DNA of 64,000 nucleotides, from the NCBI GenBank assembly GCA_951406725.2, contig OX597818.1, positions 80,290,001 through 80,354,000 of the forward strand, written 5' to 3'. The notes beneath the pieces were generated by a model. The model did not search any database. It saw nothing but the letters and a program-made list of their open reading frames with translations, and was not told the origin of the DNA. Origin of the DNA: Octopus vulgaris. Taxonomy: Eukaryota. Of the stretch, positions 18,071-62,160 are shown one piece after another; the stretch's first letter is position 1; each line of letters begins with the position of its first letter. A program made the position numbers and the translations under genes.

Positions 18071-20301
18071 AACCTAAACCTGTCGACACCACAAATAAAA
18101 ATCCTTTCAAGAGGACTAAAATTCACCCCAACTCCACAATACCCTAACCTGAGGGAAATACAGGATGACATCTCACACTTTTGCAGAAAATTACGCCTCA
18201 CAGAGGAATTTTTTGACAGGAAAACTAATAATAACGACGAATCAATGGTCTGTAACAAAAGCAACTATAATCCCATAAAAGGCAAAAACAAAACCTTAGA
18301 CAAATTTTGCGATTACATCTCCAACTTCCCTTATGGTGAACTCCCACAACCTAAACTCAAGCCCAACACCAGTAAAAGAGAATGGGAAATCATCCATACG
18401 CTACGAGACAATCATGACGTCACAATAAAGGAAGCTGATAAGGGTAGTACGGTCGTTGTTATGAATACTGAGCAATATAAAAACTCTGTATCTCTCCTTT
18501 TAGAGGATACCACATACTACGAAAGAGTAGTCGACTACCAGCAATCCAAAACAATGACCAAACTGAAGGCACTCATTTACCAACACCGGAATGACTTGAC
18601 AGCAAAGGAATGCGACTACATTACTAAATTTAATTGCAAAACCAGCACACTCTATGGGCTTCCAAAAATACACAAGAGTCAAATTATCACAGAAGCTTGC
18701 AAAAAGTCCACTTCAACCTGCATCACTATACCACATCCCACTGATCTCAAACTGAGACCAATAGTGGCAGGCCCAAGTTGTGAAACACACAGACTTAGCA
18801 ACTTTATAGATATCATCTTAAAGCCAAAACTGAAACACATTCCAAGTATTGTAAGAGATGACCTGGACCTATTAAATCATCTCCCCAAACATGCCGATAA
18901 AGACACCTTAATCGTTTCTTTTGATGTTATTAATCTTTACACCACAATCCCACATGAATATGGACTGGAAGCCATTAAATTCTGGCTGGATAAATATCCC
19001 AATGAGATCCCGGAAAGAATTAAAAAAGAATTCATAATTGAGGGCCTCAAATTTATTCTGCAAAACAACTTCATGTATTTCCACAACAACACTTACAGAC
19101 AGGTCTCAGGAACTGCAATGGGTACGAAAGTTGCACCTACCTATGCAAACCTGGTGATGGCCTACCTGGAATCACATATCTATGAAAAATCCAAATATAA
19201 GTACGGCCAGTCTTTCCACAAATACCTGTTGGAGAACTGGAAACGCTACTTAGATGATTGCCTCATCCTATGGTCCCACACACTCGACCAACTTATAGAC
19301 TTCAAAAACCTTATCAACAGTGTAAATAACAACATTCAATTCACAATGGAATATAGTCAGGACCAACTCCCTTTTCTTGACATCCTAATCATTAAAAAAG
19401 GCGTCAACATTGAAACTGACATCCATTACAAACCCACTGACTCTAAACAATACCTTCTATTCACCTCCAATCACCCAAAACACACAAAGACAAATATCCC
19501 CTTCAACCTAGCGAGAAGAATCTGCACTATTGTCTCAAATGACACAACACGAAATAGAAGACTCCGGGAACTAAGGGCAATTCTTCTCGAAAGACATTAC
19601 CCGGCATCACTAGTAGACAACGGAATAGAACGGGCCAAATCAATCAACATTCAAGACCTACGAAAACCCAAACACATCCACAGTACAGTAAATAGCCTCC
19701 CCTATCTCTCAACACACAACCCAAGGAATGCAGAAGCTTACACTATTATATACAACAACATTCCACAACTAAATCAAGACCCACGCCTGAAAAAAATACT
19801 GGCAGCTCATAAAATAATAAAAAGTAAGAGACAACCTAAATCCCTAAAAAACCTCTCACCAACGCAAAATTACACAACACAAACCCACCGCCCACCATCA
19901 AAAAATGTGGTCGCCCCAACTGAAAGACCTGCATCCACCTCATTGAGGGATCGTCGTACAAGTTCCACTCGGGACACACATTCATCATAAAAAATAATTT
20001 CACGTGCGCATCAAAAAATTTACTCTACGTCATAAGGTGTGAAGGATGCCACGAAGACTACATAGGGCAAACGAGCCTTACCCTCAGAGAAAGAATGACA
20101 GTTCACCGACAACAACTGAGGGACCCCTCCACAAGACAGATACCACTAAGTGGACACTTAGACCTTTGTGCACACAATAAGTCCCCCAAATTCTTAGTCT
20201 TCCCACTATACCAATGCTCGGACAACACCACAGACCAAACACGAATAAATAAGGAAAGTAATCTTATTCAAAAATACAGACCACAACTAAACATACTCTA
20301 A
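18071..20301 (+). pseudogene. PLE reverse transcriptase + zinc-finger linker + GIY-YIG endonuclease; one frameshift (~19850) and an in-frame TGA (19921)
   Basis: Frame is open from 18071: LSRGLKFTPT, ADKGSTVVV, YGLPKIHK, LRPIV, SFDVINLYT, GTAMGTKVAP, RYLDD, LPFLD, HYKPTD; after the shift CGRPN*KTC..FTCASKNLLYVIRCEGCHEDYIGQT..R..H..E..LN. Confidence 0.92.
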
Positions 20302-20454
20302 CATACCCCCTGGAAACACATCCAGAGCAAGCACACAGGGACACGCGCACGCTCACAGCATATCGTGCGGGCGGGCACATGCACGCATCGGCACGCATAG
20401 GACACACTAGCGGGCATTGACCGCACACATACGTGGCATACACACGCATGCATT

Positions 20455-21850
20455 ATATATATGTAGGTTATGTATGTGTGTGAGTGTTGTGTGTGTGTGC
20501 ACGTTGTGTGTGTGTGTGCGCGTGTGTATATATGTGTGTGTGTGTGTGTGCACTGTGTGCGTGTGTGTGTGTATGTGTGTGTGTGTGCGCGCGTTGTGTG
20601 TGTGTGTGCACGTGTGTATATATGTGTGTGTGTGTGTGCACTGTGTGCGTGTGTGTGTGTATGTGTGTGTGTGTGTGAGCATTGTATACGTGTGTATGTA
20701 TTTACATGTGTATTTGTTTTATATATATATATATATATATATATATATATGTGAGTGTTGTGTGTGTATATGCATGGTATGTGTGTATATGTGAGTACAT
20801 TGTTTGTGTGTGTGTGCGGTATGTAGAGATATATTTGAGTGTGTACGCTATAGGTTTGTAATTTGTGTGTGTGGGTGTGTGTGTGAATTTTTTTTATATA
20901 TACATGTGTGTGTATGTGTGTGAAAAAATATATGTATGTGCATGTATGTGTGTATGTATATATATATATATATATATATATGTATATATATATGTATATA
21001 TATATGTGTATGTATATGTGTGTGTGTGTATATTTATTTGCATGTTTATGCGTGTATAAACATGAGCATTATTTGCATGCGCATTGTGTATATGTATATT
21101 GTATGTATGTGTATTGTATATGTATGTGTACAATTAAGTGTATATATGTGTGTGTATGTGTGCATTGTATATATGTATATTGTATGTGTGCCATATGTGC
21201 ATGAATACATGTATATGCATTGCGTGTATATATATGTATGCATTGTGTATGTATGTTATGTGTGTGTGTGTTTATATATATTATATGTATGCGTACGTGT
21301 ATGTGTATGCATTGTATGTATGTATATTGTGTGTATATGTGGTATATCTATGTATGTGTATGTGAACACTATTTATATGTATACATGTATATATGTATAT
21401 GCATTGTCTATATATATATATATATTATATGTATGTATTGCGTACGTATATTGCATGCATATATTGTGTATGTGCATTATATACATGCTGTATTTGTATA
21501 TTGTATGTGTATATATATGCTAGGTGTATTTGTGTGATATTTATATTATGTATGGATGTGTGCGTGTGTTGTGTGTGTGTGTGTGTGTGTGTGTGTGTGT
21601 GTGTGTGTGTGTGTGTATGTGTGTTATATATATGTGTGTATATTATATATAAATACATGTTATATTTGTGTGTTGTGTGTATATATTATATATGTGGGTG
21701 CGTTGTGTGTGTGTGTGTTCTGTGTGTGTGTGTGTGTTGTGTGTATGTGGTGTGTGTTTGTATACTATGTGTGTGTGTGTGTGTTGTTGTGTGTGTGTGT
21801 GTGTGTGTGTGTGTGTGTGTGTGTGTGTGTGTGTGTGTATATATGTGTGT
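20455..21850. repeat. Degenerate (TG)/(TATG) satellite inside the PLE 3' UTR
   Basis: Directly visible low-complexity block. Confidence 0.9.
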
Positions 21851-22281
21851 GACAAACAGACGCTGCTTGACCAGCAGGCACGGACACATCTATTCACACC
21901 CACATACTAACCTCCTGATAACCCCAAAACCATTGATGCTTGAAGGGGAAGTATACACCACACTGGGTACAACCTTTTTTCTCTCAATTCAACCTTTCTG
22001 CTAAAACAAACAGGTCAGTAACAACATATTCTCGCCTTCAACTTAAAATATTCTGAGATGTATAAAAAATCCATTTTAATTTTTGCTGTCAAAAGATTGT
22101 GTATATATATATACCAAAGACTGTATATATATACATGTAATGTGACAATTTGCGACAACCAATAATTAACGCAACCAAATTTCCAATAATATATTTGTTT
22201 TATCCTTTTCTGCCAATTTTTCCAAATATTCTCATCACACTATTGAACTTCTCTGTTACCAAACACTATATTTATACATGT

Positions 22282-22420
22282 AATGTGACAATTTTGTATA
22301 AAAAAACATTTTTGAATTCATAATATCCAATGTGACAATTATGTAAAAAACTTTTTTGAATGCATAATATTCAATGTGACAATTATGTAAAAAACTTTTT
22401 TGAACCCATATTATTCAATG
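22282..22420 (+). repeat. Three ~44-47 bp tandem units in the PLE 3' end
   Basis: AATGTGACAATT at 22282, 22329 and 22373, each followed by an A-run/T-run and TGAA. Confidence 0.85.
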
Positions 22421-60695: not shown

Positions 60696-61420
60696 CATAT
60701 TTACATATATAAACACACACACGCACATTATCACATACATGAATATTAACACATATAGCAATCTTTATATCCTACTCAATGTGGATATATTATTAGAAAG
60801 CTATATGCTACACTATTCGCCTTGATGTACGGTACTAAGAGTAGACATATATCGCTAGCAGACAAGAATCGTCTGGTATGGGTACTGGAACTGTCATATC
60901 TCGTGATTTTAGTATACATGCGCTTCTTTAGTGGTAAGCATCCGCTTGCCACATGCCAGCTAAATCTCACTGCTAACGATATATAGAATAACAACGAATG
61001 TTCAATCACTGACGTCGAAAACAACCAGCAAACACACAGATACATAACACACACACACACACACACACACACACACACACACACACACACACACACACAC
61101 ATACAGACGCACACACACAGTCATACACACCCTTATACATTCACACACTTATACACGCATGTATATATAATCATAAAAAATAGATAAAAACACAAGTTTA
61201 TACACTCATGTACTTATACTCGCACACACATTTCCCCCCACACACATACATATATATATATGTATGTATGTGTATATATATAAATATATGTGTGTATGCA
61301 TGTTCATAACCACCTTATATACATGCACACATGAACGCACACACATACCTCTATACACACACACACACATACACACACACATACACACACACATACACAC
61401 ACACATACACACACACACAT

Positions 61421-61810
61421 TCTTTTCTTTTCGTTGTTTCAGTCATTTGACAGTGGCCATCCTGGAGCACCGCCTTTAGTCGAACAAATCGGCCACAGTA
61501 CTTATTCTTTGTAAGCCTAGTACTTATTCTATCGGGCTCTTTTGCCGAACCGGTAAGTTACGGGGACGTAAACACGCCAACATTGGTTGTCAAGCGATGG
61601 TGGGGGGGAGAGACAAACACAAACATACACACACACATACATATAAGTGTGTGTGACGGGCTTCATTCAGTTTCCGTCTACCAAATTCACTCACAAGGCT
61701 TTGGTTAGCCCGAGATTATAGTAGAAAACACTTGTCCAAGATGCCACACAGTGGAACTGAACCCGGAACCATGTGTTTGGTAAGCAAGCTACTTGCAACA
61801 CAGCCACTCC
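61421..61810 (-). mobile_element. CORE-type SINE
   Basis: Family motifs. Confidence 0.88.
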
Positions 61811-61814
61811 ATAA

Positions 61815-62160
61815 GGATATTACTGTTAACAATTAACAATATCAGTGGCTAGCATGGGTAAAAGAATCATAAAGGCAAAATTATCAATTAATAACGAAGG
61901 GTACTACTTGTAGCACTAGCATGCTAAAGATAGCAGTCAAAACGACTCAAAACCACAGTTTTCACTTGTTCATAAGGGCAAAATGGAGGGAACGGGTGCA
62001 AAATTTTTAGACCCCTTACCATAGACGAAAAGAATCGGATCACAGTGAGTTCGAATTTTGTGAATGATCACTTTGTTCGTTGACTGATCAGTGAGTAAAA
62101 CTGTGGTTTTGAGTCGTTTTGACTGCTATCTTTAGCATACTAGTGCTACAAGTAGTACCC
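61815..62160. mobile_element. Element with a 64-bp inverted repeat
   Basis: 61899-61962 vs 62097-62160, 1 mismatch; CAGTGGCTAGCAT and ATGCTAAAGATAG resemble the 45589 element. Confidence 0.7.

Follow-up and report, generated by a model that had tools for sequence, protein, structure and literature searches.

The stretch analysed here comprises 64,000 nucleotides of the Octopus vulgaris genome (NCBI GenBank assembly GCA_951406725.2, contig OX597818.1, positions 80,290,001 to 80,354,000 of the forward strand; hereafter the window, numbered from its first letter) and carries a dense series of hammerhead ribozymes (HHRs). A sequence-only reading of it had listed nine type-I HHRs and a mirror copy, and had proposed that one Penelope-like element (PLE) drives several non-coding passenger families, mostly into (TA)n. 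We find instead that the window is probably a nest of PLE insertions: six 3′ ends of elements, one pseudo-long terminal repeat (pLTR) headed by a tRNA-like sequence, and two non-coding tandem units (families F and J). Beyond the window, the sequences incline us, by a modest balance, to the view that this one animal genome holds thousands of PLE-mobilised retrozyme copies, in at least five groups, whose hammerheads would be of the permuted SGC type and switchable or dimer-dependent, together with a Penelope terminal repeat that is itself a ribozyme-bearing short interspersed nuclear element (SINE) with a tRNA-like head.

Features of the window

Families are named after the motif that led to them: A (22421), B (27729), C (28522), D (34245), E2 (40667), F (45854), G (46429), E (56759), H (60482) and the previously unlisted J (40365); for sites on the minus strand the earlier positions mark the 3′ edge. 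The features are as follows.

18071-22543, plus strand: A, Neptune-type PLE copy; reverse transcriptase (RT) 18071-19990, GIY-YIG 19924-20301 (Pfam RVT_1 and GIY-YIG)
22421-22465, plus strand: HHR of A, type I, U3-A8 core variant, palindromic stem III
27653-27892, plus strand: B, Hydra-type PLE 3′ stub in (TA)n; stub 27729-27892, HHR 27729-27787 (U4C), inverted copy 27653-27728
28470-28797, minus strand: C, pLTR of a Poseidon-type PLE; tRNA-like head 28669-28743, (AAT/AAC)n, type-I HHR 28521-28565, tail
34245-34287, minus strand: D, type-I HHR of an old family (14 candidates, 68-83% identity centred on the core)
40045-40534, plus strand: J, 5′-truncated copy of a TA-associated non-coding tandem unit of about 680 nt, absent from the sequence-only reading
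40365-40427, plus strand: SGC core of J; block S 40365-40376, GAAA at 40387, CUGAUGA at 40416, predicted cut after 40370
40591-40799, plus strand: E2, pLTR stub of a Neptune-type PLE of about 6 kb; HHR 40667-40701, U4C
45590-46368, minus strand: F, 549-nt head-to-tail unit 45590-46138; HHR 45853-45931, partial upstream copy 46139-46287, inverted piece 46287-46368
46385-46549, plus strand: G, 3′ stub of another Neptune-type PLE; HHR 46429-46464, A6U
56660-56866, minus strand: E, pLTR stub of a Neptune-type group related to E2; HHR 56759-56793
60078-60700, plus strand: H, Hydra-type PLE 3′ stub with a mirror copy; HHR 60483-60569, mirror copy 60078-60337

For each listed family the best matches in the 2.8-Gb assembly were fetched together with 1.5 kb of sequence on either side (15 loci for D and 30 for every other family), from 1182 to 3516 initial candidates per family (14 for D); E2 was traced via the E loci. 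The papers cited by PMC or bioRxiv identifier are represented throughout by parts of their text.

The hammerhead motifs

The nine motifs and the mirror copy are real, lie where they had been placed and exceed chance. A strict type-I parser, run on the window and on 20 local dinucleotide shuffles, found four perfect cores (34281, 45924, 56789 and 44962) against a shuffle mean of 0.05. With one mismatch it gave three matches, at 27733, at 40671 and one spurious, against 0.8 in the shuffles, and 22427 was recovered at two mismatches. The strict parser found no match at the window copies at 28522, 46429 and 60482; in each of these families the full type-I fold is present in the majority of 30 genomic copies, and type-I membership was read from family majorities showing the core with stems I-III in C-G-S order. 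Three cores that had appeared decayed are variants shared by the whole family (U3-A8 at 22421, U4C at 27729 and A6U at 46429). The first of these has already been described in PLE hammerheads (PMC4209133), and the last, found in at least 90% of G copies, makes the predicted activity of the G hammerhead doubtful. The reported palindromic character of stem III holds for part of the motifs: among all fetched loci, 14 of the 34 distinct even-length stem III sequences of at least 6 nt are perfect palindromes, where about 2.7 are expected, whereas stem III is non-palindromic at 27729 and 45854.

The association with (TA)n likewise stands for A, B, E, F, G and H but fails for C. A 3′ (TA)4+ tract follows 30/30 copies in the 22421 family, 27/30 in that of 27729 and 26/30 in each of those of 56759 and 46429 (background 11%), 28/30 in the 45854 family and 27/30 in the 60482 family (background 26%), and only 1/30 in the 28522 family. 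Inverted copies of an element's own end are common, as had been noticed (15/30 at 22421, 15/30 at 45854 and 12/30 at 28522).

Over the 1.97 Mb of fetched loci, which were preselected for HHR families, the type-I parser gave 259 matches against 6 in shuffles and brought out dozens of additional HHR families. Of the 421 Rfam matches in the window, which microsatellites dominate, the 150 listed include no hammerhead, and none came up in two small regions scanned. Insertions nest in one another's (TA)n ends, in the window at 45590-46549 and elsewhere (L176, L533 and L405), which accounts for the local density of HHRs; G adjoins F at 45590-46549, and in L176 it adjoins an F-related subfamily (86%). 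An unlisted strict type-I HHR with a 6-bp stem I and a perfect core lies at 44956-45017 (plus strand). Two stub copies at 56501-56660 and 56950-57105 (plus strand), with CUGACGA and a possible stem I and without GAAA, likely represent a decayed relative of E or G in a local duplication.

Six motifs are the 3′ ends of autonomous PLEs

Six of the listed sites (22421, 27729, 40667, 46429, 56759 and 60482) are the 3′ ends of at least five autonomous PLE families of Neptune or Hydra type. What the sequence-only reading had entered as a caveat, that some motifs might be 3′ stubs of autonomous PLEs, is the main answer: six of nine sites trace to PLE families of their own. Copies extend into an open reading frame (ORF) for A, B, E, E2, G and H, the HHRs are of the PLE type and 5′ inversions are common. 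An RT with a C-terminal GIY-YIG domain is joined to the HHR end in A, B, E/E2 and C, in two loci of G and in one of H, and the pLTR or partial-tandem layout and inverted 5′ copies of PLEs are present. Clades were assigned from RT motifs and from the linkers, the latter set against the descriptions in PMC8557442: the linkers read Cx2-5CxxC in A, E and G and CxCx5C in B and H.

The window copy of A lacks about 1.4 kb on its 5′ (N-terminal) side, a part that is present in L007, and has a frameshift between RT and GIY-YIG. Its microsatellite-rich 3′ untranslated region (UTR) is about 2.2 kb long, with (TA)n on either side; the UTR is linked to the ORF in 4/30 loci, and 11/30 (the window's own copy included) reach the edge of the 1.5-kb flank. 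For B, 3/30 loci extend 618-735 nt upstream, L064 holds a GIY-YIG domain with the CxCx5C linker, and L382 and L383 hold RT plus endonuclease (EN). The whole pLTR-ORF-UTR-pLTR layout is found for E/E2 in four loci (L325, L329, L330 and L331). An N-terminal ORF piece beside E in L053, considered as a linkage, proved to be a one-off and led to the parent family. G reaches a Neptune-type ORF in 2/30 loci (L410 and L431), which were chosen by their upstream edge. H has an AT-rich 3′ UTR of about 2.7 kb that reaches a degenerate Hydra-type EN in L375, with partial support from L366, where sequence from the end of the EN is shared; the EN matches upstream of H in L224 and L355 belong to separate elements.

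The ends of A, B, E and G lie at a modal 85-108 nt past the predicted cut site and abut (TA)n. TA-rich sequence also marks the pLTR junctions of A, E2 and F themselves, which suggests priming on the nicked target.

Some points weigh against the nest of insertions as we describe it. The ORF links of G and H rest on two loci and on one full locus, respectively. A short E sub-element may also exist, given that none of the 30 E copies begins more than 28 nt from where the query begins. The loci, being best matches to each query rather than a random sample, are biased towards query-like copies, and among the fetched loci (about 2 Mb) no autonomous element shares the ends of F or J, nor was a parent element seen for D, F or J. 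Young, intact Neptune-type ORFs do occur in L317-L324 (781 aa, and 884-1009 aa in tandem repeats of about 6.2 kb) and might drive F and J.

Family J carries a predicted permuted hammerhead

J was first noticed beside E2, where GAAA precedes CUGAUGA. In the homologs the order from 5′ to 3′ is a stem III strand, U16.1, H17 and a stem I strand; a linker of 4-7 nt; a stem II strand, GAAA and a stem III strand; a linker of 12-17 nt; then a stem I strand, CUGANGA and a stem II strand. The blocks thus follow one another in a non-circular S-G-C order with a complete core, whose nucleotides vary little or not at all. J cannot be read as type I, as no GAAA follows block C. The unit of about 680 nt has a longest stop-free frame of 79 aa and recurs head-to-tail across a TA tract; starts of a next unit or partial tandems were found in L532, L545, L531, L354, L399 and L528, none going beyond a partial unit in these stretches. 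Exact 27-mers of one subfamily number 795, and (TA)4+ lies within 220 nt of the core in 14/20 copies. Where J adjoins Neptune elements (L350, L354 and L399) it is not part of them: it lies antisense and is separated by (TA)n or by the element's end, so these are independent insertions.

We fetched 20 further copies, 17 of which passed a relaxed SGC parser. Over 2.05 Mb this parser returned 31 rows against none in shuffles, three of them unrelated to J (two are one site and one is weak). An alignment of 17 sequences, drawn from five diverged groups, has 91.1% of its cells paired, against 79.1 ± 1.6 when shuffled (0/500), and 40 cells changed on both sides, against 15.9 ± 3.7 (0/500), both measures being inflated by the relatedness of the sequences; slid registers pair at 35-56%. 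Changes on both sides affect 4/5 pairs in stem I, 4/5 in stem III and 1/4 in stem II, where the support is weak. Moreover, of five pairs, strands form more Watson-Crick pairs with their own group's partner than across groups, in stem I (4.43 vs 2.94) as in stem III (3.79 vs 2.48).

The picture is not uniform, and several results count against an SGC fold. Two of the five measures, pairs with change (87/500) and pair types (440/500), show no excess over shuffles. Stem II is wobble-rich (2.07 Watson-Crick pairs of 4), and in most groups block C pairs with the next 30-40 nt as an imperfect hairpin. No minimum-energy fold of J combines all the SGC helices, and no helix that consistently links the outer sides of stems I and II, as the fourth helix of Eckert et al. 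does, was identified in J, where other helices compete.

J could be a hammerhead look-alike that does not cut, its S and G blocks being kept for folding or enzyme recognition and its block C held in the hairpin. We regard this as a possibility to be taken seriously, though not the one we adopt: most groups retain the competing hairpin although its sequence differs, stem II is weak, Poseidon insertion in vitro does not need HHR cleavage (PMC11167929), and 8/9 Xenopus retrozyme dimers stayed uncleaved (bioRxiv 10.64898/2026.07.22.740005). It fits poorly with a core held in hammerhead register, with a stem I that covaries with the upstream strand (in group J5 only the upstream partner fits) and with the paired changes in stem III. 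We lean towards SGC cleavage by J-type RNAs, and J, if self-cleaving, would likely be the first SGC hammerhead of an animal. The window copy itself has two mismatches in stem I and is probably dead.

Where an upstream extension of stem III forms, it leaves, in several groups, 1-3 nt before the stem I strand, a distance that a single molecule could hardly span. J may be a switch that cuts only briefly while being transcribed, or else across a pair of copies, which would resemble the dimer rule known for PLE hammerheads. J groups (for example L528:638-729 and L354:4845-4935) have, between the extension helix and stem III, a conserved AGUA on one strand that faces GAA on the other, a pattern that we take to resemble the loop E/bulged-G motif.

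Family C is a tRNA-headed Poseidon terminal repeat

The window copy of C has an inverted tail copy at 28746-28797 and an 8-bp target-site duplication. When loci were selected by the head, the HHR body lay downstream in 26/30. An RT motif pattern that we take to be that of Poseidon gave 129 matches, and in 16 of the first 30 the tRNA head stands directly after the ORF; in two longer loci the ORF reads out of the upstream pLTR through the HHR. Out of 4644 candidates, the best 150 contained no intact Poseidon ORF and reached at most 569 aa of open frame, and to judge by these sequences the Poseidon driver of C looks extinct in this assembly.

C has the marks of a tRNA-derived SINE: a head with A and B boxes at tRNA spacing, 5′ ends at the head start, target-site duplications and a high copy number. 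Exact 19-mers, counted with inverted copies included and with two patterns permitting CpG or subfamily variants, number 902 at -150, 1053 at -24, 3539 at +1, 4969 at +60 and 6786 in the HHR, which is a 3.4-fold drop over 24 nt at +1, 1.4-fold over 59 nt within the head and 1.2-fold over 126 nt upstream. In loci selected by the body, 17/27 head segments start between -7 and +4, two at -12/-14 and eight inside the head, with none beyond -25; one partial head reaching upstream (L097) fell under the length filter of this count. Target-site duplications of at least 8 bp flank 14/59 loci against 7/300 controls, and there are two preferred 3′ ends about 24 nt apart. Relaxed ARAGORN folds several heads as tRNAs, and aligned to 30 genomic tRNA genes the head scores 62 (Arg 62, Ala 59, Thr 56) against a maximum of 52 in 200 shuffles; Rfam and default ARAGORN gave no tRNA match on single C copies. 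On these grounds it seems fairly likely that C was also amplified alone as a SINE. Octopus tRNA-derived SINEs were reportedly described by Ohshima and Okada in 1994, and C may be one of them. Another repeat with a tRNA-like head, distinct from C, stands upstream of a G copy (L193:1170-1500, oriented).

Against amplification as a SINE stand the lack of diagnostic sites between solo and ORF-linked copies, which share one majority sequence, and a fold-back hotspot at +1 of the head. Both would suit a second, still tenable if less convincing account, in which C copies are truncated Poseidon insertions and the pile-up at the 5′ edge marks an RT stop or fold-back hotspot instead of a start by RNA polymerase III. 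Indeed, a short self-complementary stretch spans +1, many copies are head-to-head palindromes there, and the unit has no internal T-run terminator. Truncation does not readily explain why the count falls so steeply at +1 and so gently on either side, nor a head with tRNA-spaced boxes, relaxed tRNA folds and an alignment above all 200 shuffles.

Families F and D

F is the sole clear non-coding passenger among the listed sites, and its sequence is retrozyme-like, resembling a non-LTR retrozyme. An identical unit-to-unit junction is crossed in 16/30 loci and the other 14 start within the unit; none of the 30 loci shares other upstream sequence, and the unit has no ORF. Inversions occur in 15/30, many 3′ ends run a few bases into the next unit and then into (TA)n, and two full units are present in 1/30 (L161). 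As a circle, F folds at -134 kcal/mol, compared with -109 ± 6 in 60 shuffles (z = -4.4).

It seems unlikely that F and J are internally deleted or locally duplicated PLE ends rather than independently mobile RNAs. Most copies are indeed shorter than two units and both families are known from genomic DNA only, but an identical junction is present on many chromosomes, copies differ in 5′ truncation and inversion, and 3′ ends run into the start of the next unit.

In the window there are also a short element resembling a miniature inverted-repeat transposable element at 61890-62160 (terminal inverted repeats of about 70 bp, no HHR) and fragments of long interspersed element-type RT, Tc1/mariner and Tc5-type transposase at 14600-16007, 41986-42660, 50476-51312, 57338-57847 and 2660-3100.

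Discussion

The mechanism that we propose starts from Neptune- and Hydra-type families whose ends stand at a fixed distance past the predicted cut and abut (TA)n. The element's endonuclease would nick (TA)n, and reverse transcription would start inside the RNA, probably at its own TA-rich pLTR tract; early stops and template switches would then yield stubs and inverted ends. F (549 nt) and J, ORF-less and recurring head-to-tail, would be copied from multimeric or circular RNA by a TA-targeting enzyme. J is predicted to cut itself after the equivalent of nt 40370 via three crossing helices, probably briefly during transcription or between copies, as a downstream hairpin competes for block C. 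C is the pLTR of a Poseidon-type element whose ORF begins just before the HHR; RNA polymerase III may have transcribed C from its tRNA-like head into a short RNA, which the Poseidon enzyme would have inserted at AT-rich sites.

That a single RT/GIY-YIG driver mobilises many non-coding HHR passengers into (TA)n would suit F and J as ORF-less tandem units in (TA)n, the predominance of short copies in every family and a D without a known parent, but it is very improbable, since A, B, E, E2, G and H each enter an ORF of their own, C is Poseidon-type with 1/30 copies near (TA)n, so that PLE ORF links contradict it at seven of nine sites, and the ORF cast as the driver is broken, being 5′-truncated (N-terminal part missing) and frameshifted.

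PLE hammerheads in (TA)n are established biology, and the listed system fits it while including two genuine non-autonomous forms. PLE type-I hammerheads (Cervera and de la Peña 2014, PMC4209133) share with those of octopus the many families per genome, the short palindromic stem III and the U3-A8 variant, and most PLE motifs described there are single and come from truncated PLEs; several octopus ones differ in having stems III of 3-6 bp and long stem II loops. The Neptune and Hydra elements of Craig et al. (2021, PMC8557442) have the same C-terminal GIY-YIG with a clade-specific linker, HHRs in the pLTR, inverted 5′ copies and an insertion bias to (TA)n, whereas the octopus A, E and H have 3′ UTRs of 2-3 kb and were placed in clades by motif instead of by a tree with reference elements. 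Like F and J, metazoan non-LTR retrozymes (PMC7761336; bioRxiv 10.64898/2026.07.22.740005) are ORF-less head-to-tail units with one HHR each, for which PLEs have been proposed as drivers; F and J differ in being dispersed, mostly under two units long, with PLE inversions and (TA)n targets, and the HHR of J is not type I.

SGC HRIMA-1 with its variants (Eckert et al. 2023, PMC10085705) and J have in common the S-G-C order, three crossing helices, a short linker between stems I and II and covarying stems I and III. In the parts of that paper considered here the fourth helix is essential and no such type is reported in named genomes, whereas J is a high-copy animal repeat in which, instead of an identified fourth helix, a helix extends stem III upstream and a hairpin competes downstream. 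For C, the schistosome Sm-alpha/Sj-alpha SINEs (PMC2770079, PMC6765202) are a precedent in that Sm-alpha has an HHR behind a polymerase III head of tRNA-like type; in the anole Poseidon PAc (PMC11167929) the ORF overlaps the HHR, the tail arises from two nearby 3′ ends and the targets are AT-rich. Unlike in both, the tRNA head of C lies inside the pLTR of the autonomous element itself, so that the entire unit is common to the SINE and its driver.

Our literature searches, from which repeat databases were left out, returned no report of an SGC hammerhead in an animal or of a tRNA-headed pLTR, and by these searches both are new variants. Non-circular RNA permutations have been known since 2023 from host-less environmental sequence, their origin being left open in the text considered (PMC10085705). 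With its diverged groups and its type-I relatives in a named animal lineage, J would supply the SGC type with hosts and natural variants and make its origin testable. J further indicates that type-I descriptors overlook entire retrozyme families. Finally, the tRNA-headed pLTR would provide a concrete driver candidate for hammerhead SINEs of the Sm-alpha kind, and points to a partnership between SINEs and PLEs.

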